Shown: piece after piece, positions 29,275 through 48,355 of the stretch
Layout: the number at the start of each line of letters is the position of its first letter
How positions within the stretch are numbered: the stretch's first letter is position 1
Virus record (IMG/VR): IMGVR_UViG_3300037067_009025
Location: 1 to 64,000 of that record
Length of the DNA stretch: 64,000 nt
Reading direction: 5' to 3' (one strand)
From: a virus
Lineage: Duplodnaviria > Caudoviricetes
Notes under the pieces: generated by a model
Databases searched by the model: none
Seen by the model: only the letters and a program-made list of their open reading frames with translations
Told to the model about the DNA's origin: nothing
Program-made: the position numbers and the translations under genes

Positions 29275-29303
29275 AGTATAACACACATTTGCTGCGTTGT
29301 CAA
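29275..29303 (-). promoter_or_regulatory. sigma70-type promoter, TTGACAACGCA subclass, driving the GT9 cassette
   Basis: Minus strand TTGACA-acgcagcaaatgtgtgt(17)-TATACT. Confidence 0.85.
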
Positions 29304-29515
29304 GAGAAAAATGCAAGGGACGCCCGAGACGCTTTGCGACTCCTGACGACCCAAGATACGCCCTTCTACACTTGGTAGATGCGCTGTTCCAAACTACCTT
29401 CGTTCTTCGGCCCGTCGGCCTCCGCCATTCAAAGAATCCCTTTAGGGGACAGAAAGCACGGTTTGGAGTTTTACAAAATTGGTGTCCTGGATTTGAGGTT
29501 CCAGGACAGACCTAA

Positions 29516-29550
29516 GAAAAAAGAGGGAGGAGAATAATCTCTCCTCCCTC
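29516..29550 (-). terminator. intrinsic terminator after the major capsid gene
   Basis: GAGGGAGGAGA/TCTCCTCCCTC stem followed by a U run on the minus strand. Confidence 0.85.
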
Positions 29551-35660: not shown

Positions 35661-36619
35661 CCAGGGTGCATGAATTTTAAATGAGGTTCCATGCAAAAGC
35701 TCTGCCAAACGAGTGGCAAGGCTCGACGAGGAATGGTCTAAAAAGTCTGCCATCCCGTCTTGGACTCTCACAAATATGGAGCTTTTCTGTGCCAGGAAAT
35801 TTTCCCAGGATTTTTTGGAAAAGTCCTGGATGGATACCCGAGGTCAGGTCGCAAATGTCCACCAGCCACAGGACATTTCTCGGGAGTGGACTATTTGTTC
35901 ATTACTTGGTGAACATTCCAGTTGACAACTTGTTGACGACTTCAAAATTCCATTACTGGCAAAAGTTGTTCACAAAAATTCCAGTGCACATAGTGGGGCT
36001 ATGGAAAACAGAGACTTTTCAAACTGGCCAAATTTTTTTCAGTATTTTGGAACAGGGCGCACCAGTAAGGGAGAGGGTCAGGTCGGGATTTGTCCCGAGC
36101 CTGGGACTATCCCTTTCAGGAAATTTGACTTTTCCCAGGGGCTCTGTGGTTGAGCGTAGAAACAAGTGCCTACTGAAAGAAAACGCTTTCCCAGGTCATG
36201 GGGCCCCTTTAAATTATACTTATATTATAACATATACTTATATATAGACTTATATAAGGCCCTGCCCTTGAAAGAATAAAAAGCCCATGCTTTCCCAGCC
36301 TTTGGGCTGGCCTTGTGCTTTCCTGTTATTCTTTGGCCGTCCCTGGGCTGGGGCGGGTCACGTTTTGCCCCTGTTATCTTCTGGCCGTGAAGGGGTGAAC
36401 CTTTGGGACTATTGGCAGACCTTCAGGGATTGCCAGCCTTTGGGGCCTGGCTGGGGCTGGCTGGTGTTATCCCTGGGCCTTTGGCCTTTGGTGCCAGGTC
36501 ACGGGGTCAAGGTCAAGGGCTGGCCGTGTGCTGGGCCTATGGCCTGGGCCTGGGGTGCTGGGCTGCTATCCCCTGGCCTGGCCCTTTAAGCACGTGTTAA
36601 AATATCTTTGGCCGTGCCC

Positions 36620-36648
36620 TTGACAATTCAAAAGCGGGGTGCTATATT
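36620..36648 (+). promoter_or_regulatory. early sigma70 promoter (extended -10)
   Basis: TTGACA-17-TATATT with TG upstream of -10. Confidence 0.85.
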
Positions 36649-36672
36649 TTAATCAGAAGGGAGGGCCGAACG

Positions 36673-39196
36673 ATGAAAAGCCAAAGCGAACAAAGAAGGC
36701 AGGAAGCGGAAAGAATACTGGAAGGGATAGAAAAAAGCGGGCGGGTTTACTGGCTGGCCGTCTTAGTTAAAAGCGGGGCCCTTCTGGCAAGTGAAGCGGG
36801 TTATATGCTTTTGAATTGGGAGGGTTTAAAATGATTCCATTATTCAAAAACACTGAAGAGGCTTTAAAATACGGGGCCAGCATAGCGGGAAACGCTGAAG
36901 CCCTGGCAGAACTGAAGGCAGAACGGGCCCGCCTTGTCCTGGAAGGGCGCAAACTGCAAGAGGCTGAAGACTGGGCGGGAGCCCTGGCCCTGGCAAGCGG
37001 TCAAAGTCAATTCACACGGGAAGCCCTGGAAGCTGCGGGGCTTAAAGGATAAACACACCACAAACAAGGGAGGGTTAAAAATGGAACACGTCAAGCGCAT
37101 TGCAAACCAAAAAGCACATGAACACGTTTCACGGCGGGAACCGTTCAAAGGGTCAAACCTTTACGCCGAATATAGAACGGTGAAACAAGATTCTTTCAGG
37201 GAGGCAATCAGGGAGGCTTTAGGGGAACCGCTGGAAGTTTACGCCGTCTTTTCATACGGTGAACACTTTCCCATTTATGCCTTTAAGGCGGGCCAGTGGT
37301 TCAGGAATAAGGATAAATACAGCGTGACCACTTCAAAACATCAAAGCCAGGCCAGGCCCTGGGACGTGTCACACTTTACAGACCTTGACACGGACGGAAT
37401 AAAAGCGGTTTGCGGTCTTTAACTTTAACCTTTAAAGGGAGGTCTTAACATGGAAAAAACTTTCAAAGCTGAAACGGTTCAAGTCTGCAAAGTGGCCCGC
37501 CGTTTAGGGGTCATTGCCGAAAAGAAAACCCTTTGCCCTGGCTGCGGGAAAGTAAAACACTATGAAGCCCTGGCCTTTGAACTGCGGGCCCTTGAGGGCA
37601 GAATTAAAGAGGTGAACACACCCAAAGCGGACGGGCTGGAATGGTGCCAGGATTGCCAGGGCGGGAGGGGATAAGATGAAAGAATTCCTTTTCATGCTTT
37701 GGCAGATTTTTAAAGTGGGCCTGGTCTGTATAATCTGGGCCCTGGGGCTGGTAGTCAATGCCTGGGCCCTGGCCCTTTGCGCCCTTGTGGGGATTATAGG
37801 CTTAACAGTGGCCTTTTTTGGGTCACTGATTTTTTTCAATATTATCATTCTTGCAATGGGTTTAAAGTAAATTGTCATAACTTTGACACGTGTTAAGTCT
37901 TAGGACAAAAGGGAGGTCATAAAATGGAACTTTGCACACACGGCAAACCGATAACGGGCTATTGCCAGCCCTGCGCCCAGGCCATAGACGGCGGGGACAA
38001 TATGCTTTTAATGGTCAAGATTCGGGAAGTATACGGGAATAAAAGGGTTTATGTTCAATCCTTCCAGGCTGGGGCTTTAAAGGCTTTGACTGGACGGGAA
38101 ACCTTGACGGATTCAGATATAAAGGCACTTAAAAGCCTGGGTTATTCCTTCCAGGTGCTGGGGAATAGTATTTTATAGGGTTTTACGGGGCAAGGAATAG
38201 GAAAGAATGAGGCGGGGAACACGTCCCGCCCGCATAAACCCAGCCCCTGGGCTATTCTTTCCAGTCCCCTATAGTCAAATAACCCTTTAAAACCCTGGTT
38301 TTCTTTATCCTATATACTGGGGCAAGCTGGGGACTTATTCACGGACTTTTTAACCTGGGAGGGCTTAACTATGGCAAGGCAATCTTTAACGGAATTCATA
38401 AGGGCCAATAGGGCCGAACTTGACGGGGCCATAAAGCGGGCAGTCCCGAACATTGGCAGCCTAAACGATTCAGACCGTAAAGACTGGGTTTTAAACGATG
38501 AAGGGCTTTACAATTGGGCCAGGTCTGAAGGGGTGAAGGTTTAACCCTGGCCGTCTTTTAACAAGGGAGGCTTTACAATGGAAGCGCAAAAAATGACACT
38601 GGCAGAAGCCAGGCAGATTTTAGGCAATCGGCCCCGCTGGGAACTTTTGCAGATAAAGCGGGCCTTGTCCATGCTGGAACTTTTGAACACCCCAGAAGAG
38701 GCCCAAAGGCTGGAAGCTGCAAGGCTTTTACTGGGTGCTATGCCTAAGCCCTGGGCCTAAGCCTGGGGAACCTTTAAACCGTGGGAGGGTCTTTTTATGC
38801 GGTCTTTAATCGCTGGGGCCCTTGTGCTGGCCCTGGGCCTGGCCTTCACTGGGCCAGCCTGGGCGGGCAAGGGCGGGAAGCTGAAAGCCTGCAATGATTC
38901 AAGCGGGCGGGTCTACTACGTGCCAAAAGCTGGGAGCGGGAAGGGGCTTTACTGGGGCAGCAGTCCGAAGACGGCCCAGCCCCTAAAAGACGGGCAGCGG
39001 GTTTATATCATACCAAAGCGGGGCAAGCGGTAAAGCTGGCCCCTGGCTGGGAGGGGTGAACATGCGCTATTATGTCCTATTTTATGCGGGCCTTGTGGCC
39101 TTCTGGGTCTTCCTGGGCTGGCTGGTCTACGGGGCAGCCCTGCGGGCCGTGTCCCAGGCAATGGGCCAGGCTGGGGCCATGCTGGGGACTTTTTGA
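36673..39196 (+). CDS. cluster of about 10 small early hypothetical proteins (36673-36834, 36831-37052, 37081-37422, 37450-37674, 37676-37870, 37924-38178, 38371-38544, 38578-38760, 38797-39033, 39062-39196)
   Basis: Nearly all are preceded by a GGGAGG RBS; sizes typical of host-takeover genes. Confidence 0.7.
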
Positions 39197-39206
39197 GCGG
39201 GTGACC

Positions 39207-39235
39207 TTGACACGCTGGGCCCTGGGTGTTATACT
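39207..39235 (+). promoter_or_regulatory. sigma70 promoter
   Basis: TTGACA-17-TATACT with TG upstream of -10. Confidence 0.8.
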
Positions 39236-39899
39236 TGAAGGGGCGGGGCCCTGGGTGCCTGGGGTGTGCCTGGCAGCGGAAAGCGTTTTCCTGGGAAGCG
39301 TTTTCACGGGGACGGGGTGACTTTGGCCGAACCTTGAAGACGGGCCCCAGTGCTAAAGTGTCCAGTAAATGTCAAATTGATTTTAAGGGTTCAAACTGAA
39401 AATTGCCCCGCTGCAAAAGTGTATCAGTTTAAGGGTGTTTTAGGACTTTGACGTTTTGGCCGATTTTTCGCTTGTAGATTCAAAAACTGGGGATTTTTCT
39501 GGGGAAAATCTGGTATTTTCACAAGTGACCCGAAAACCCTTTGCCCCAGGTTATTCCAGCGTGTTTTTGCGGGTGTTTTTCGGCCCCTGGCGGGGCCCTG
39601 GCGGGCAGCTTTTAAACACCTGGCAGCATATTATAGGATGATGACGGGCCAAAGGCTGGGACAAAGCCCGTGACATTTAAGGCATAAAATTTTGATAATT
39701 TGATGACGTTTTCAGCATAAGGGCGGGCAGAATGCGGGACAAAGGCACGGACAAAAGGCGGGACAATTCGGGAGGGATTGAACGGTGAAAGCGTTTTCTC
39801 AAAAATCCATTCGGGCCAGCCTTCAGCAGAAGAGGTCAAGGGGCCCCAGAATTCCAGGGCCTGGCCCTGGCAGACTGAAAAATATTTTTTGCCTGGCCC

Positions 39900-39928
39900 T
39901 TGTTTTTTGGGCTGGGGTGTGCTATACT
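39900..39928 (+). promoter_or_regulatory. extended -10 sigma70 promoter for the AAA/VWA operon
   Basis: TTGTTT-17-TATACT with TG upstream of -10. Confidence 0.6.
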
Positions 39929-39984
39929 TTATAATGCAATAGGGCAGCACGAACAAACAAACCTTAAACCTGGGAGGGTTAAAA

Positions 39985-40980
39985 ATGACGCCGAAAAAAT
40001 TACAAGAGATTTTAAAAGACGCCGTAAAGCACGGTGAACAATTGCTTATCGTGGGCCCGCCTGGCATTGGCAAAACGGATATTGTCAAGGCGGTATGCAA
40101 GGACTTAGGGGCCGACATGATTATATCACACCCCGCCGTGTCCGACCCCACGGACTACAAGGGTTTACCGTTCAAAGTGTCCGACAATTCACACGCCGAA
40201 TTTTTGCCATTCGGGGAAACCTGGCGGGCTATTCAAGCGGACAAAGTGACATTATGGTTTATTGATGACCTGGGCCAGGCTTCTGAAGCGGTTCAAAAAG
40301 CCCTTATGCAATTGCTTTTAGGGCGGAAGTTAAACGGTCACAAGTTAAGTGACAAAGTGGTTTTTTGCGGGGCCACTAATGACATAGGCCATAGGGCAGG
40401 TGTCACGGGACTTTTGGAACCCGTAAAATCCCGCTGGGATTCAATCGTGAACCTGGAACCGTCACTTGATGACTGGTGCACGTGGGCTTATGGCAATGGG
40501 CAGCCTGCGGAATTGATTGCATTCCTGCGGAACTGTCCCGAATTGCTTTCCCACTTTGAACCGACCAAAGCACTGATAAACCAGCCTTGTCCCAGAACGT
40601 GGGCCAGTGTTGGCCGTAGAATTGCCAGGAACCAGCAGGACTTTGACTTGATTGCTGGGGCCGTGGGGAAGGGTGCAGCCCAGGAACTTTTAGCATTCCT
40701 GGAACTGGCAGCAAAGGCCCCGTCCCTGGACGCTATCTTGATGAACCCGAAGACTGCGCCGATTCCTGAAAAGCCAGCCCTTCTTTATCTTGTGGCTGCG
40801 GGTTTGTCCCAGCGTGCTAAGAAGGATAATTTTAATCGTGTCTATCAATACCTTTTGAGGCTTCCCCAGTCATTCAGAACTATGGCAATCAAGGACGCTA
40901 TCAATCGGGACAATTCCTTGACGGGCACGGACACTTTCACCGCTTATGTCACGTCTGCGGAAGGCAAAAGCATTTTATAA
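39985..40980 (+). CDS. MoxR-like AAA+ ATPase
   Basis: Walker A GPPGIGKT, Walker B FIDDLGQA, GATN, KSRW, CPRTW. Confidence 0.9.
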   Translation: MTPKKLQEILKDAVKHGEQLLIVGPPGIGKTDIVKAVCKDLGADMIISHPAVSDPTDYKGLPFKVSDNSHAEFLPFGETWRAIQADKVTLWFIDDLGQASEAVQKALMQLLLGRKLNGHKLSDKVVFCGATNDIGHRAGVTGLLEPVKSRWDSIVNLEPSLDDWCTWAYGNGQPAELIAFLRNCPELLSHFEPTKALINQPCPRTWASVGRRIARNQQDFDLIAGAVGKGAAQELLAFLELAAKAPSLDAILMNPKTAPIPEKPALLYLVAAGLSQRAKKDNFNRVYQYLLRLPQSFRTMAIKDAINRDNSLTGTDTFTAYVTSAEGKSIL

Positions 40981-41010
40981 ACCGTTTTGAAAACCTGGGA
41001 GGGTTTGAAC

Positions 41011-41856
41011 ATGGACAAAATTTTGACACGTGCCGTATTAGTGAAGGTATCAATCAGCCAATTCAATCCGAAAAGGCAGGACGGGAAAACCACGGCGGAA
41101 GTCCTGGCCGACAAAGGCGCAAAGTCTACCGCTGGGGTGTGGATTAAAAACCTGGTAGACCCTAAAGCCCTTGAGGCTATCAACACGCTGGCCCAGGCTG
41201 CACGGGCTGAACATTACAGGCTTTCGCTTCCCTGGGCGGATGAAGGCTGGCGGATTCTTCCCACGGCCATTTATATGAAGTATCAAGAGGCCATGAGGGA
41301 AAAACGGACGGGATTTTCCTGGGAGGTTCAAAAATTCCTGGATAAATATCCCCAGTATATTGAAGAGGCAAAGGCAGCCTTAAACGGCATGTTTAACCCT
41401 GGGGACTATCCGACCCCTGAACAAGTCAAGGGAAAATTCGGAATGAAAATTGACGTGGCCCCGCTTCCCTGCGGAAGTGATTTTCGGGTGTCCCTGGGAA
41501 GTGATGAACTGGCAGCAATGCAGCAGGATGTTGACCAGCGTGTTAAGGAAGCCACGGCCCAGGCAGTAAAAGACCTTTGGAACCGCCTGGCCCAGCCAGT
41601 AAAAGCAATGGTCAATCGTTTATCGGAACCCGATTCCATTTTTCGGGATTCACTGATTGATAATCTGCGGGATATTATTGACCTGGTGCCGTCCCTGAAT
41701 GTCACGGGTGACCCTGCACTTGACGCCGTGGCCCAGGAATGCAAGGTCAAACTTTCGGGCTTCAAGGCTGAAGACCTGCGGAAAGATAAAGCCCTGCGGA
41801 AGAGTGCAGCGGAAGAGGCGGACGCTATCTTGAAGAAAATGGAGGGCTATATCTAA
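41011..41856 (+). CDS. DUF3150-like helical protein
   Basis: LSLPW..G.RILP, FNPGDYP, PLP..DFR motifs; family that travels with MoxR/VWA in mobile elements. Confidence 0.55.
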   Translation: MDKILTRAVLVKVSISQFNPKRQDGKTTAEVLADKGAKSTAGVWIKNLVDPKALEAINTLAQAARAEHYRLSLPWADEGWRILPTAIYMKYQEAMREKRTGFSWEVQKFLDKYPQYIEEAKAALNGMFNPGDYPTPEQVKGKFGMKIDVAPLPCGSDFRVSLGSDELAAMQQDVDQRVKEATAQAVKDLWNRLAQPVKAMVNRLSEPDSIFRDSLIDNLRDIIDLVPSLNVTGDPALDAVAQECKVKLSGFKAEDLRKDKALRKSAAEEADAILKKMEGYI

Positions 41857-43088
41857 TGACCCCGACACTTTCAAAAATTGACAAGGCAATGAACACCCTG
41901 GTTTTAGACCAGCCCTTTTTTGCCGTGTTGGCAATGCGCCTTGAACAAGTGGAAACCAAAGAAGTCCCGACCTTTGCCACGGACGGAAAACGTCTTTTAA
42001 TCAATCCCGATTTTTGCGCTTCATTATCGGACGGGGAAGTTGTGACCGTCCTGGCCCATGAAGTTTTGCATTGTGCCCTGGGCCATATATGGCGGGCCCC
42101 TGCGGGTGCAGACCTTCAGACCTGGAACCTGGCAATTGATAATGAAACGAACTGGGAACTTGAAAAGGTAAACCGTCAAAATAGGGGTGTCCCGCCCTTC
42201 CCGTGGCCGTCCTGCGGGAAAGTCATGGAAGACCGCTTTGAGGGCTGGGCTGCGGAACGGGTTTATAAAGTCCTGGCAGAAGAGAAGGCCCAGCAAAAGG
42301 AAGACCAGCAGGGCCAGCAAGGCCAGGGAGGCGGTAAAGGGCAGCAGCAGAAGGCGGGAGGCCAGGGGCAGAATAAAGGGAAGGGGCAGCAGGGCCAGGG
42401 GCAGCCTGGACAAGGCCAGCAGCAGGGCTTTGGTGACATTATCCCAGTAAAGAAGGATGACCAGGCCCAGCTTAAACAGGAATGGGAACGGGCCGTTATT
42501 CAGGCGGAAAAATGTGGGCGGGAGCGTGGGGATATTCCAGGGGCCGTCAAGGAATTGATTCAAGAGGTGACCAGCACTAAAGTTGACTGGCGGAATATCC
42601 TGCGGGACTTCTTATCTACCACGGCAAAGGAAGACTGGAACTTTGCCCGACCGAATGCCCGCTTTGAAGACACTGGCTTTTTAATGCCGTCCCTTTACAA
42701 TGAACGGGCGGGCCACTTAGTTTTTGCAATTGATACCAGCGGGAGCACGTCAAGCGAATTGCTGGCCGAATACATAGCGGAAGCCCAGCAGGCCCTTGAT
42801 GAACTGAACCCAGAAAAATTGACCCTTGTTTATTGTGACGCTAAGATTCAACACGTCCAGGAATACGAACCAGGGGACAAGATTGAACTGGAAACCTATG
42901 GACGGGGCGGGACGGATTTTCGGCCCGTGTTCAATCATTTTAACAAGGCGGATGAAGCCCCTAAAATCGTGGTTTACTTGACCGACCTGGAAGGGACTTT
43001 CCCAAAGGAAGCCCCAGAATATCCCGTCTTATGGGTGACCGAAAACCACGGCCAGGAAGTCCCATTCGGGGACTTGATTGAAGTATAA
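41856..43088 (+). CDS. DUF2201-type metallopeptidase plus VWA-like domain protein
   Basis: TFATDG, AHEVLH (HExxH), Q/G-rich linker, IDTSGS MIDAS, GRGGTDF, LTDLEG. Confidence 0.9.
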   Translation: MTPTLSKIDKAMNTLVLDQPFFAVLAMRLEQVETKEVPTFATDGKRLLINPDFCASLSDGEVVTVLAHEVLHCALGHIWRAPAGADLQTWNLAIDNETNWELEKVNRQNRGVPPFPWPSCGKVMEDRFEGWAAERVYKVLAEEKAQQKEDQQGQQGQGGGKGQQQKAGGQGQNKGKGQQGQGQPGQGQQQGFGDIIPVKKDDQAQLKQEWERAVIQAEKCGRERGDIPGAVKELIQEVTSTKVDWRNILRDFLSTTAKEDWNFARPNARFEDTGFLMPSLYNERAGHLVFAIDTSGSTSSELLAEYIAEAQQALDELNPEKLTLVYCDAKIQHVQEYEPGDKIELETYGRGGTDFRPVFNHFNKADEAPKIVVYLTDLEGTFPKEAPEYPVLWVTENHGQEVPFGDLIEV

Positions 43089-43559
43089 ACCAGCAGCCAG
43101 GGGCCCAGTAAGGGCCCCAGGAATTGGAGGGTTAAAACATGTTAGTCTTTTCAGGGGATAGAAAATCTTTGACGGTCAAGGCTGGAAAGTTTTTCCAGAA
43201 AATTTTTGGCCATGCCTTTATCAAAATTGCTTTATGGGACGGATATAAAAGCCTTTGTTATTTTGAGGCGGGAACTTTCCGAATTGCCGTCTATTAAAAG
43301 GGAGGTGTAAACATGGCAGACTTTCGGCGTATTGTTAGGAAGGTCTATAAAACTACCGTGGTTTACAAGCTGGATGTTTTACTGGCTGAAGAAAAACGCT
43401 GGGCCCGCAAAGCCACGATTGCCAATACTAAACTGCGGGCAGTCCGAAAAAAGATAAACACCCTGGCCCAGGAACTGGCGCAAAAGACCGTAAGTGTCCA
43501 GTAAGGGCAGCCCGTGGGAGCGGGTTCAAACTGAAAACTTTTAAGGGAGGTATCAAACT

Positions 43560-44261
43560 ATGGAACCAATTTTTGAGGAAGTTTTGAAGGGCCATAAAAT
43601 TGAGATTCATTCAGACGATGACGGTATCAATCCCCGCCATGAATGGGATAATATGGGGACAATGGTTTGCTTTCATGGCCGTTATAACCTGGGAGATAAA
43701 GACCACGGATTCAAACAAAGCAATTATGATTCCTGGGCGGAACTTCAGAAGGCCATTATCAGGGAGCACGGGCCTTGTTTGATTGCCCCGCTTTATCTTT
43801 ATGACCATTCAGGTATCACAATTTCAATGGGTGAATTTTCTTGCAAGTGGGATTCTGGACAAGTGGGCTTTATCTTTGTCCCGCATTCCAGGATTCGCAA
43901 GGAATATTCTTGCAAAAGAATTTCAAAGAAGACCCTGGAACGTGCCAAAGGGTGCCTGGAAAGTGAAGTCAAGGTATACGATGACTATTTAACGGGAAAC
44001 GTTTACGGATTCAAAATTTTTGATGACGTGGACGGGGAAAATGAAATTGATTCATGCTGGGGATTCTTTGGGGACTATGAAGAAGGGGCCCTGGCTGAAG
44101 CCCGTTCAATCGTGCATTCCAGGACGGACACTTTTAGGAATGCCGTTAGAGAAAAACTGCGGGAAGTGGAAAATCAAAAGAAGGCAGAACTGGCGGACAA
44201 GCTGGACGCTGCACTTGAACACCAGCAGGAACTTAACAAGGAAGTTTTACAGGCAGCTTAA
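43560..44261 (+). CDS. conserved phage/MGE hypothetical protein
   Basis: PLYLYDHSGITIS..WDSGQVG..YLTGNVYGF..DSCWGFFG motif family. Confidence 0.65.
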   Translation: MEPIFEEVLKGHKIEIHSDDDGINPRHEWDNMGTMVCFHGRYNLGDKDHGFKQSNYDSWAELQKAIIREHGPCLIAPLYLYDHSGITISMGEFSCKWDSGQVGFIFVPHSRIRKEYSCKRISKKTLERAKGCLESEVKVYDDYLTGNVYGFKIFDDVDGENEIDSCWGFFGDYEEGALAEARSIVHSRTDTFRNAVREKLREVENQKKAELADKLDAALEHQQELNKEVLQAA

Positions 44262-45146
44262 TTCTAAAATACGGCCAGGGTGTCCAGTAAAGGCCAGGTC
44301 ACAAAAGGCGGTTCAAAATGAAATATAAAATCCAGTATAATGTTGGTAAAGTAAAATATCTTGTTAGTTTTTCAGACGGAACAAAAAGGCACAAGGACGG
44401 AAGCGAATTTTGGGATATTAAATGTTTTAAGTCAAAGGATAAAATGAATAAGTTTATCCTGGGTTTAAATAAGCAATAACTTGAAAGGTTAAAATCATGC
44501 TACAATTAGTCAAGGTGAATGCCATAAAACCCGAATACAGAATTGAGGGCTTATCCGCTGAACAAGTGCTAAGGATTCATTGCGCTTTAAAGGCCGTGCC
44601 ACAAAAGCCCCTGGAAGTGGAAGTCATGGTGAACTGTTTGAACCAGGACATAAACCGTTTGAACAAGTCTGAAGGGAGGGAATAACATGTGCTTTGAAAT
44701 GGGACATAGTGCAGGATGTTTGTGTAATAATTCGGGACGTGAAAAGTCAAAAGCCCAGGGATATAATCCAGTATCCGAACATGGAAAACTGCGGTTAATT
44801 CCAGCCAATGAGCCCAGGAATATTTGCTGGAACTGCGGAAAACTTTTTTCGGAAGACCCAAAACATTTTCTTCCAAAGGAAGTGGGACAAAAACAATATT
44901 TATCCTGTAATCATTGTGGAAAGGTGAACCACTTATAAATTTCTTTAAACACGGAGGGGCCACTATGACCGCCACGGCGAAAAAGGATATTGTTTCAGAA
45001 TTGAAAGTTGTTTCCTTGCAGATTGAGTCTATTGAGGCCCAGCTTAAAAATACGTTCGACCTGCATAAGAAAACAGAACTGAAGGAACAATTGAAAAACA
45101 AGTGGGCCCTGGTTGACAATTTGCTGGATAAATATCCGCCCAGGAC

Positions 45147-45175
45147 TTGACAAAAGTCTGGAAATATGGTATACT
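45147..45175 (+). promoter_or_regulatory. sigma70 promoter
   Basis: TTGACA-17-TATACT with TG upstream of -10. Confidence 0.8.
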
Positions 45176-46167
45176 TATCTTAACGGAGGAACGAATGAAT
45201 AGTCAAGACCGACAACGAATTCAAGAAATGATTGATGCAGCCAAAGCAGGTTCAGCGCAAGTCATTAAGCTGGATGAATTCGGGGTTTTGATGTTCAGGA
45301 ATATTTACAATGAAGCCACGATTGCGGGATTGACCATAACGATTCTTGAACGTGGAAAGATTTTTCAAATTGAGCGGACATAGGGAGGTTAATATGACCT
45401 TAAAAGACTTGATAACAAAAAGCAATTTAAGTAAAGCAGACCTGGAAAAGGAAATTCTTTTCAGCAATGATGAAGAATTAAATAATCTTCATTCAGAAGC
45501 GCAAATTGCCGAACTGGGTAACACTGGAAAATTGGTTATCTATCCCTTAACAATGAGCAGAACGGAAATTTAAGATGAAGACCCGCTTTCGTGCCAGCAT
45601 ATATCTGGATGTTTTCATTGAAGGGGATAAACCCCTTGAAGAAGCACGGGCGGAAGCCACGGCACAAGTCAATGAACTGGTGCAATCAATCTCAGAAGTT
45701 GGCTTCAGGGAAGACTTGAACTATAGCAATCCTTATGTGGGAGGCGTGGCCCACTATGAACCAAAAAATTTGCTGAAGCCTCTGGACAAGGACATTTAAA
45801 ATGTTAAGGATTAAATTGGATATTACAGACAAGGATGAACACAAACTTATAACACACCTTGAACACGTGCAATGGGCCATTGCTGGCGGAGAAAAGGCTG
45901 GCCCAGGCTGGGAACTGGAAGGCGAAAATGAAAGTCAAGACGATTCTAAAAAAACTTAGGACTGAAAATCTTTTCGGAAAACCCGTTAAGATTCTTAAAG
46001 TGTCCAGTAAAGCCCCTAAAGAATTAGAGGGTAAAACTGGAACTTTAACAAACCCATTTGCGGGATTCGAGGTTGAGGGTATTGGAATATTCCTGGATAA
46101 CAATGAGCCCGATGTTTGCAATCTGGGCCTGGAAGATGATATTGAAATAATTGGTTAATTTGTCCGC

Positions 46168-46221
46168 AGCGGGGCCTCCTCCCTAACCCAGTCTCCTCCC
46201 AGTCTGGGTTTTGGCCCCGCT
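46168..46221 (+). ncRNA. structured RNA/terminator displaying two anti-SD (CCUCCC) motifs, cuckoo-like
   Basis: AGCGGGGCC/GGCCCCGCT stem, UCCUCCCU bulge, AACCCAG/CTGGGTT stem, apical CCUCCC loop. Confidence 0.6.
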
Positions 46222-46374
46222 AATATTTTAATGACCAGTAATCACGCACACGGAGAACAGGTTTAAATGGAAAAGGAACTTAACAATAGATGTATTGAAT
46301 GTGGTTGCGTATTAGATGAGGGAGAATATGACCTTTGCGAAGCATGTAGAGAAAGACTGGATAATGACTAACCC

Positions 46375-46403
46375 TTGACAAAATTAGAAAAGTATGCTAT
46401 AAT
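46375..46403 (+). promoter_or_regulatory. consensus sigma70 promoter
   Basis: TTGACA-17-TATAAT with TG upstream of -10. Confidence 0.9.
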
Positions 46404-46414
46404 TAAAGGGCTTT

Positions 46415-48355
46415 ATGAACCTTGCGGACATGCTGAAAGAGATTAGATTTTTTGGAGTGAAGCCCACGCTTGATTCTATCGAGCAGGTAAAATCTCCCAG
46501 GTTAAGGTTAAAATTGAGAAGGCTATTTGAGGAAGCCTTTCATATTTTGAGAGTTGGAGATTATCGTTATCAGAATATCACGTGGCCCGATACTACCAGG
46601 CCCAAAGGAGAAAATCAAAATGGACAAGATTGAAACATCCTACAAAGGTTACAAAATTGAACACGATATTGATTATGATAAAAAAGAGAAGTGGGTTTTA
46701 AAGGATGACGATGACACTTCTGTTTATGAACATGCGTCCCTGGCTGCCGTGAAAGAATATGTGGACAGGTTGAACAAAAAAGGATTCAAGACGTTCACGA
46801 TTCTTTACGATTCTGGATGGGGAAACAATAAAGGATATATTCGTCATACGGTCACATCCATTGATGACCAGGGTGATTATTGGATTAAAAATGATGAAGG
46901 CAGGCGTCAAAAGATTCGTCCTGGGAATGCCGTGGTAGATTCTCCCGAGAATGCAACACTCATTCAGGAGATTCGAGCGGTTGAGGCCGAAGAGGATAAG
47001 CTCCAAAAAAGACGCCATGCTTTGGAGAAAAAGCTCAAGAGACACGGAAAGAACGATGACTAAGTGGAACTACTACGTCAACGATTTTGAGTTTGAATGG
47101 CCCGATGGTGACGGTGGGTATACTTATCTGAAAGCAAATTTTCAGGTGAATGCCTGCCGTTATCTCTTTGGTGATGACGCCGATGGAAACCGTGGCGTCT
47201 ATGTCACAGAGAGAGAACTTGTAAACATTGAAGTCAAAGATGACACGGGCAATCCTATTGAACTTAAACCAGGCATGGAAGAACATCTTGCCGATAGAGT
47301 CAGAGAAGAAGGCAGCGATTTAGAATAACACGGGAGGGAGTTAATGAATAGGCCCCTCAGAAATCCCGAATTGACCAAAAAAGAGCGAGTCGCTCAAAAA
47401 CGTCAAGCCCTCACCCAGGAACTGTATACGGTCTTTACCCGTTCATACGAAATGGATAGGGCCTGGGGTGTGCCTCAAAGAAAAGCATTTGAAAAAGCCT
47501 TTCAGCTTCTGAACAAACGAGTAGATGAGTTGAATAAGCAGAAGCCCCAGGAATCTTCCTTTGTTATCGGTTGTCGTGGGGAAGTGAAAGACCTGGTTCT
47601 TAAACGTGTCGCAGAGCTTGAAGGACAGGTAAACAAACATGACGGAAAGAAAACAGCCAAAATACACTCACATAGAAATTAAGTTGTGGGTGTTTCGTTT
47701 TTCATTTTACAAATTAAACCATAAATGGACAATCAGATTTGAAATGTCCAGCGGGTGGGAATAATATGTGTTTACTGAAAGACCATTCAAAAACTTGTAA
47801 GTGTCATTTGACCACAAAATTTAAGGAAAAGAAAACTATCTGTTTTGTTTGCAAGAAAAGTGTGGATAAGGTTCTTGATTTGTGTGCTACCAGTAAAGAC
47901 CTATGTAGCATTGAGTGTGAACGAACGTTTTGGTTGGATATTCTTTATTAAGGAGCCTCTTCATGTTAAAACTGAATTTAAAAAGTATGGGAGAGTTATT
48001 TACCTCTGCCCAGATTGAGGATTTTATCACCAAGAATTTCTTTAATCTGAAAACCAGTGATGTAATCAAACTCCGTGCTTTGATAAAAACACTCCACGAA
48101 AAAAGTATTAAGGCTGAACTCCTCTGGGATAGTAACTTCAAGGATAAACAAAGTATTTTCTCCCTGGCAGTTTTAAGGTTGAAGCAGGTGTATGGGGACG
48201 ATATTCATGTGGCCTGTATTGAAGATTTGGGAAGGCTCACAGATAAACAATATGATTCCTTCTGGGAATTTTGTAGGAAAATCTCTGAGTATAAAAGCTA
48301 TCAGAAAAGTATGTCATTACGGGCGAAAAGAAAATACTTGACAACGCACAAATAA
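46415..48355 (+). CDS. run of hypothetical proteins (46415-46633, 46620-47063, 47056-47328, 47344-47682, 47963-48355)
   Basis: Coupled ORFs with RBS; no recognisable domain. Confidence 0.55.

Follow-up and report, generated by a model that had tools for sequence, protein, structure and literature searches.

Can a hairpin at the 3' end of a phage transcription unit, besides closing that unit, expose loops that cover the ribosome sites of a whole class of genes? The question is raised by a two-tier hairpin of 54 nucleotides (nt) at positions 46168-46221 (+ strand, delimited by folding) of IMG/VR record IMGVR_UViG_3300037067_009025, a linear sequence of 85,949 bp from an uncultured virus with a CheckV completeness of 95%. 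We call the stretch under analysis, the first 64 kb of that record, the window. The hairpin carries two unpaired CCUCCC motifs, and these are complementary to GGGAGG, the ribosome site of a block of putatively early genes upstream of it. Our tentative answer, to which we give a probability of about 0.4, is that the hairpin is a 3' terminator or stabiliser of the last early unit and may also act as an anti-Shine-Dalgarno (anti-SD) RNA directed at the early class of sites.

A two-tier hairpin with two looped CCUCCC motifs

The lower stem pairs AGCGGGGCC (46168-46176) with GGCCCCGCU (46213-46221) over 9 bp. Above it, an asymmetric 8x2 internal loop sets UCCUCCCU (46177-46184) opposite UU (46211-46212), followed by a 7-bp upper stem in which AACCCAG (46185-46191) pairs with CUGGGUU (46204-46210). 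A U/U mismatch and 2 bp (CU/AG) then lead to the 6-nt apical loop CCUCCC (46195-46200), which lies inside UCUCCUCCCAGU (46192-46203). On its 5' side the internal loop consists of the 8 nt UCCUCCCU, the complement of AGGGAGGG; extended by both closing C, this side reads CCUCCUCCC (46175-46183, the first two C being paired); UCUCCUCCC occupies 46192-46200. The apical loop complements GGGAGG, which extends with the flanking AG to CUGGGAGG. An exact direct repeat of 8 nt, CUCCUCCC, at 46176 and 46193, spans both unpaired regions.

Folding predictions agree with this architecture. The free energy of the hairpin is -31.1 kcal/mol in a 62-nt fold, compared with -16.5 +/- 2.3 kcal/mol for shuffled sequences (z -6.39; 0 of 200 shuffles as stable), and the element falls within the top ten 70-nt windows for stability in the whole genome. 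When 471 nt of context are folded, every stem base is paired, and the eight internal-loop and six apical-loop bases each have a probability of about 1.00 of being unpaired. The initial annotation of this locus had described a 9-bp GC stem, a bulge, a second stem and an apical CCUCCC loop, a description that sequence and folds bear out; its view that both exposed motifs are exact complements of GGGAGG also holds, both being unpaired in the 471-nt context. Of the span 46168-46228 that it proposed, the start is correct, but the hairpin ends at 46221 and the remainder takes in part of an A/U-rich tail.

Such a display is not plausibly due to chance. CTCCTCC occurs four times on the + strand of the 86-kb genome, and in regions with + strand genes the sense strand has about 0.2 CCTCCC per kb; for two CCUCCC copies within 17 nt, both of them looped, we estimate a probability of at most about 1e-4 per site. 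The hairpin also contains four CUC, each fully or partly looped. No further copy of it was found elsewhere in the phage genome.

The hairpin lies after a stop codon and before a strong promoter. Its stem begins 9 nt after the stop codon of a gene encoding 76 amino acids (45928-46158, + strand), for which a Pfam search returned no match. Downstream, a sigma-70 promoter with a perfect consensus (46375-46403, + strand; TTGACA-17-TATAAT with TG, 12/12 matches) starts the next unit. The nearest promoter upstream, of sigma-70 type with an extended -10 element (45147-45175, + strand; TTGACA-17-TATACT with TG), starts the last transcription unit of early type, whose end the hairpin would form. We also considered the - strand, on which the loops would read GGGAGG as in a CsrA-type sponge. 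This reading was rejected: the neighbouring genes are all on the + strand, and promoter-like sites facing the minus direction are weak (9/12).

Early ribosome sites and their predicted pairing with the loops

The proposed targets lie in a module at 36143-45690 (+ strand) with two peculiarities, a stereotyped ribosome site and an almost complete lack of CTC. We take the genes at 36-46 kb as early from their position, gene content and promoter type. Their ribosome sites follow the consensus AAGGGAGGGTTAAAAATG with striking uniformity (GGGAGG-GTTAAAA-ATG). Between 35.9 and 46.16 kb, 23 GGGAGG are present, 17 of them 5-9 nt ahead of the start codon of an open reading frame (ORF) of at least 30 amino acids; the remaining 40 kb of + strand genes hold five GGGAGG in all. 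The statement in the initial annotation that most early genes use this site is thus confirmed. The base preceding a start-linked GGAG is G in 17/21 early cases and A in none (0/21), whereas elsewhere it is A in 42/76 and G in 10/76 (Fisher p=8e-9). Later-type sites belong to an AGGAG class, such as AAAGGAGAA-N-ATG or the AAGGAG type.

This single base has its counterpart in the loops. The GGGAGG targets stand before 17 early starts and are rare elsewhere, and the loops match this class specifically because CCUCCC carries a C facing the early G where a 16S-like CCUCCU carries a U. Predicted duplexes between the loops and early, AAGGGAGGG-type sites range from -13.3 to -16.9 kcal/mol, against -10.7 to -13.1 kcal/mol for a generic 16S tail, which may differ from that of the host. 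The internal loop is predicted to pair with the early consensus site at -14.7 kcal/mol and the apical loop with CUGGGAGGG-type sites at -16.9 kcal/mol; for later-type sites, the predicted loop duplexes are equal to or weaker than those with the 16S tail.

Taken together, the unit would begin with the promoter at 45147 and take in the genes up to 46158, with the hairpin as its 3'-terminal structure. There, the hairpin may partly stop or pause the host RNA polymerase and shield the 3' end of the transcript, while its two single-stranded CCUCCC motifs would be displayed and kept open by the 8x2 internal loop and the apical loop. We infer that these loops, carried on early transcripts or on a stable 3' fragment, would pair in the cell with the GGGAGG ribosome sites of the early module and compete with the 16S tail, so that translation of early genes would be damped or shut off. 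Middle and late genes, with their AGGAG-type sites, would largely escape this effect.

A separate locus beyond the window, at 78043-78074 of the genome (+ strand), offers a related observation. Here the ribosome-binding site and start codon of an ORF of 70 amino acids that starts at 78057 are enclosed in a predicted hairpin of GGGAGGAU with AUCCUCCC, the partner strand being supplied by the Pro-Pro codons of that same ORF. The 80-nt segment 78031-78110, which contains this hairpin, has a predicted free energy of -22.4 kcal/mol, versus -14.0 kcal/mol for shuffled sequences. These predictions suggest that the phage relies on CCUCCC:GGGAGG pairing in cis at this site.

The second peculiarity of the early module is its CTC content: one CTC in 36143-45690 (+ strand) versus about 100 expected, later + strand genes having 10.5 per kb. 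The depletion extends to all frames and to intergenic DNA and is strand-specific. TCCC, CCCT and CCTT are enriched in this desert; since these related, anti-SD-like words are enriched, CTC itself is the avoided word, and a general avoidance of anti-SD-like words was rejected as the cause. GAG outside ribosome sites is about 3.5-fold low in the module. The hairpin had been said to follow 9.5 kb that avoid CUC, at the end of that region. The desert is real, but the hairpin lies about 0.4-0.5 kb beyond its edge: CTCs at 45691 and 45780 precede it, and CTC density is normal only after it, from 46415 on.

Several other features of the early module deserve mention. CATC and GTCG are nearly absent, with one occurrence each in 35.9-46.16 kb versus about 24 and 18 expected, and the GC content is 50% up to about 44 kb versus 41% elsewhere. 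Two GC-rich, ORF-poor stretches (36290-36600 and 38700-39650, + strand) contain many CTGG and GGCC words and have very stable predicted structures, the 130 nt that precede the promoter at 36620 reaching a predicted -66.7 kcal/mol; these stretches may be structured leader RNAs. A trio of genes at 39985-43088 (+ strand) encodes a MoxR/CobS-like AAA ATPase, a protein with a weak DUF3150 match and a DUF2201 metallopeptidase/VWA protein.

Gene layout, relatives and competing explanations

The genome as a whole has 41% GC and is distant from described phages: blastn against 50,697 phage records gave no DNA-level match to a phage, and the UDG-PolA fusion polymerase is about 23% identical to those of the best named phages. 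Structural genes occupy the - strand from about 9.8 to 33 kb, and past about 35 kb the genes are on the + strand. Throughout the genome there are strong promoters of sigma-70 type with an extended -10 element, in two classes. The first, very uniform class reads TTGACAACGCA-N-TGnTATACT-TATA and is found at 657, 3282, 48338, 51571, 55794 and 60304 (+ strand), at 29303 (- strand) and, beyond the window, at 68659 and 72697. The second, early-type class has no TTGACAACGCA extension and comprises the promoters at 36620, 39207, 45147 and 46375. This distribution suggests two temporal classes, both read by the host sigma-70 polymerase. A bipartite motif, (GTGT)CCAGTAA followed after 18-22 nt by GGTTnAAA(CTGAAAA), recurs in the same orientation at 39362, 43105, 43498, 44284, 46004, 46235 and 52448 (+ strand); its second box resembles the spacer of early ribosome sites.

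Between the hairpin and the promoter of the next unit lies a small ORF of 34 amino acids with a CxxC...CxxC pattern (46267-46371, + strand), which has a weak zinc-ribbon match under the cut-off (PF18912, E 0.002). The first gene of the next unit (46415-46633, + strand) encodes 72 amino acids and is 50% identical to a gene of a related locus (L021:3282-3503). A scan for tRNA and transfer-messenger RNA (tmRNA) genes was negative.

We searched for relatives in several ways. At the hairpin site, two short contigs of other metagenomic origin show 100% identity, which makes them uninformative on conservation. Seven loci were fetched through their DNA polymerase, among which L021 alone spans the hairpin site. 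A full HMMER search with the flanking genes gave 12 matches, from which four further loci were fetched (L025, L027, L028 and L031); a word-index protein search with the same genes recovered only the protein of L021 and the phage itself, and scans of IMG/VR and JGI metagenomes with the two flanking genes recovered nothing. An exact 15-mer of the hairpin had 14 matches in IMG/VR, all of them unrelated and due to chance. Homologues of the 76-amino-acid gene are present at L021:2922-3167, L025:1972-2226, L027:35-280, L028:1164-1400 and L031:975-1202.

L021 is the only diverged relative with both flanking genes (40-53% amino acid identity; 64% for the polymerase), and a promoter matching the one at 45147 precedes the orthologous gene there. 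In the slot of the hairpin, L021 has a spacer of 114 nt with a stable predicted fold (-37 kcal/mol, z -4.4) made up of an 11-bp GC-rich outer stem around two inner hairpins. C-rich single strands are found at the apex (GCCUCCCGCCC), at the junction (CUUCCUU) and on the 3' side (CCCCUCCCCUUCC). The spacer cannot be aligned with the hairpin; it has no U-tract, no promoter ahead of the next gene and no counterpart of the 34-amino-acid ORF, and it abuts the ribosome site of the next gene. The L021 phage has neither a CTC desert nor uniform GGGAGG ribosome sites, its sites being heterogeneous. No comparable hairpin and no CCUCC were seen in L025, L027, L028 or L031; a downstream promoter with an extended -10 element follows the homologous gene in L025, L027 and L028. 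Because it offers only identical copies and the non-alignable L021, conservation is silent on the loops and neither supports nor refutes their function.

Two further observations concern other loci. A CCTCC near a promoter in L017 was considered as a related element and rejected, as it is not part of a hairpin. Just past the promoter in L025 (2515-2610, + strand), a T-arm-like sequence, GGTTCGAGGCC, is present; ARAGORN reports no tRNA or tmRNA there.

What, then, speaks for a hairpin designed to display anti-SD sequences? In favour are the repeat, the exposure of both copies, the single-base match to the early class and the 8x2 pyrimidine internal loop, an energetically expensive feature that plain terminators do not usually have. 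The stability far above chance, the predicted duplexes with early sites, stronger than those of the generic 16S tail, and the predicted cis pairing at 78043-78074 speak for it as well. We also count for this reading the different yet C-rich structured element in the same slot of L021, as well as two arguments by analogy: C-rich loops acting on ribosome sites are an established device of small RNAs (sRNAs; PMC4615179), and T4 RegB is a protein precedent for shutting off early genes selectively via their Shine-Dalgarno sequence (PMC3014915). A number of points weigh against it. The 16S tail of the energy comparison is generic; the other copies of the site are 100% identical, and four homologous loci have no such hairpin. 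There is no sign of co-evolution between loops and sites, because L021 is non-alignable and without stereotyped GGGAGG. Stoichiometry is poor, with a single attached hairpin offering two sites to at least 17 ribosome sites. Finally, a GC-rich hairpin just past a stop codon is most often a simple terminator.

This last point leads to the strongest competitor: a plain intrinsic terminator, or 3' stabiliser of the early unit, whose CCUCCC loops are functionless, for example the leftover of a local duplication. We consider it possible, and nearly as likely as the dual role. A GC-rich stem 9 nt past a stop codon, with an A/U tail containing U4, 150 nt before a perfect promoter, is what one would expect of such an element, and its lack of conservation in L025, L027, L028 and L031 is that of a replaceable terminator. 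The poor stoichiometry of anti-SD action points the same way. The tail itself is ambiguous. Its A/U-rich sequence, AAUAUUUUAAU (46222-46232, + strand), follows the stem with a weak U-tract, the U4 beginning 5 nt past the stem, compared with 0-2 nt in a typical terminator. On a TransTerm-like scale, the tail UAAUAUUUU scores -2.96 from U46221 and -2.3 from A46222, which is weak and below the strength of a clear terminator, although still T-rich. The default tail cut-off of TransTermHP is about -2.5. A consensus terminator scan did not call the site; a whole-genome scan was too permissive to be informative, and we kept only its tail scores.

The terminator of the phage's own capsid gene (about 29510-29545, - strand) provides an internal standard. 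Like the hairpin, it is a GC-rich stem-loop right after a stop codon, with a T-rich stretch and a downstream promoter (29303, - strand). However, its 11-bp stem, GAGGGAGGAGA paired with UCUCCUCCCUC, is uninterrupted and leads into U6, whereas the stem of the hairpin is broken by the 8x2 loop, which weakens a terminator, and by a U/U mismatch, and its U run, just four long, is separated from the stem by a shift of 5 nt. The capsid terminator is also built of CUCCUCCC/GGGAGGAG words, and such words may thus be common stem material. Against a plain terminator stand the exact 8-nt repeat in both unpaired parts and the small ORF at 46267-46371, which, having no promoter of its own, needs read-through of the hairpin. 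In L021, moreover, the structure in the same slot is not a terminator, as it lacks a U-tract and the following gene has no promoter ahead of it.

Less probable is an RNA processing or bait site, that is, either an RNase III-type site or the first place where clustered CUC lie open to a CUC-directed ribonuclease or to a factor that binds RNA. Cleavage or binding would then set the 3' end of the early mRNA, or titrate a factor that the CUC-free module evades. The extreme lack of CTC does imply a factor of some kind that reads CUC, be it in RNA or in single-stranded DNA, CUC itself being avoided while related words are enriched, and the four CUC of the hairpin lie wholly or partly in loops. The element of L021 lies inside a read-through transcript, a better fit to processing than to termination; yet L021 shows no CUC avoidance. 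Nor is the hairpin the first CUC met, as the desert ends earlier, at 45691 and 45780. No RNase-like domain was found among the roughly 25 early-module ORFs scanned with Pfam and PHROGs, and one hairpin per transcript would make a weak stoichiometric decoy.

The RNase III version invites comparison with phage T7, in which RNase III signals stand between the cistrons of the early genes and processed 3' ends stabilise the mRNA; one such processed end is reported to pair with a ribosome site upstream of it. With stems of about 18 bp in total (9+7+2 bp around the 8x2 internal loop) and a place between units, the hairpin resembles the two-stem T7 signals, irregular helices of about two turns that also contain an internal loop and lie between cistrons of an early transcript made by the host polymerase. 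The likeness stops at the internal loop, which is strongly asymmetric and all pyrimidine in the phage hairpin, unlike the more symmetric loops of T7.

A protein-binding or DNA-level element, such as an operator for a phage repressor that binds RNA, a signal for replication or packaging, or a boundary of stepwise DNA entry, seems unlikely. It would suit a module boundary with a copy of the CCAGTAA...GGTTnAAA motif 14 nt downstream of the hairpin (46235); nothing argues for it specifically, the hairpin is not repeated in the genome, and no known family matches it. Least probable is a translational regulator acting in cis on one ribosome site of the same transcript, either the UAGGGAGG of the gene starting at 45397 or the GGAGA of the small ORF starting at 46267: a perfect 8-bp Watson-Crick match between the UAGGGAGG site at 45384 and loop CCUCCCUA, the predicted SD-occluding hairpin elsewhere in the genome and the abutting ribosome site in L021 speak for it, but the loops stay unpaired and the hairpin dominant in the 471-nt context fold, the site at 45384 is 800 nt distant, and pairing with GGAGA is limited to 5 bp.

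We therefore retain, at the strength given above, a terminal hairpin that would double as an anti-SD RNA. One may speculate further, although we think it unlikely in full, that the GGGAGG-GTTAAAA-ATG variant is a private mark of early genes, that the 3' hairpin selectively masks them as it accumulates and so drives the switch from early to middle translation, and that the hairpin may also be the target of a factor reading CUC. If the loops truly mask early ribosome sites, they would form a minimal switch that times gene expression in the phage with no protein involved. Its specificity would hinge on one base, C in the loop versus U in 16S and G in early sites versus A elsewhere, and it could possibly serve as an orthogonal translational off-switch. 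The hairpin would in addition mark the end of the stranger CUC-free early module, perhaps a single protected class of transcript.

Comparison with known systems

The initial annotation had related the hairpin to the alphaproteobacterial cuckoo and CcsR sRNAs. Cuckoo RNAs consist of two to four adjacent hairpins, each of 24-50 nt, whose apical loops measure 9-27 nt and contain CCUCCUCCC (PMC4615179). RNase E releases the CcsR RNAs, which act on mRNAs, out of the 3' untranslated region (UTR) of a DUF1127 gene, and this neighbour (CIN1 loci) accompanies the family in Rhizobiales or Rhodobacterales (PMC8034643). The phage hairpin shares with cuckoo, CcsR (RSs0680a-d) and alpha-r14 (Rfam RF02344) the unpaired CCUCCUCCC/CUCCUCCC words, complementary to the Shine-Dalgarno sequence, in stable GC-rich hairpins; it also follows a small gene, and CcsR RNAs, too, originate in the 3' UTR of such a gene upstream of them. 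Yet it is a single nested hairpin, with one motif in an 8x2 internal loop and the other in a 6-nt apical loop, and its carrier is a phage of 41% GC instead of an alphaproteobacterial chromosome. An Rfam search of the whole window at gathering scores gave no relevant match; at E<=10, the region 45900-46500 matched no cuckoo, CcsR or alpha-r14 family, the best match being a chance Flavivirus_DB on the minus strand (E 1.7). The upstream neighbours include no DUF1127 gene and no other Pfam match above the cut-off. The proposed kinship is therefore not upheld by the Rfam searches, the nested layout or the gene neighbourhood, and the phage hairpin is not a member of this family.

True cuckoo-type elements do occur in viral sequences. 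When IMG/VR was scanned for pairs of such words separated by 4-30 nt, at least 120 loci were obtained; about 18 of them, on GC-rich viral contigs, have the classic form of two hairpins side by side, with CCUCCUCCC in each loop (L042, L045, L046, L052, L055, L065, L066, L074, L084, L090, L097, L105, L116, L127, L133, L139, L142 and L148). None of the loci obtained is nested like the phage hairpin. The GC-rich contigs are probably prophages or phages of Alphaproteobacteria.

By analogy, the nearest functional counterparts are sRNAs whose C-rich loops mask ribosome sites. In Staphylococcus aureus, UCCC loops of RNAIII and the Rsa RNAs pair with G-rich ribosome sites and block translation initiation (PMC4615179, PMC3961350). 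As in the phage hairpin, C-rich unpaired loops face G-rich ribosome sites, several loops to an RNA. Those Bacillota RNAs, however, are independent, host-encoded molecules with proven targets, while the phage hairpin is a predicted, phage-encoded structure at the 3' end of an operon. Were its loops to act as proposed, the display of anti-SD sequences by RNA would extend from the cuckoo RNAs of Alphaproteobacteria and the C-rich sRNAs of staphylococci to lytic-type phages.

A second analogy concerns the logic of early shut-off. RegB of phage T4 is an endoribonuclease that cuts GG/AG and selectively shuts off early mRNAs through their Shine-Dalgarno sequences (PMC3014915). In both phages, early genes have a distinctive Shine-Dalgarno context, GGAG with an A-rich spacer in T4 and GGGAGG-GTTAAAA-ATG here. 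RegB is a protein nuclease, whereas the effector proposed here is an RNA that would mask the site; if so, the hairpin would be an RNA-only counterpart of T4 RegB.

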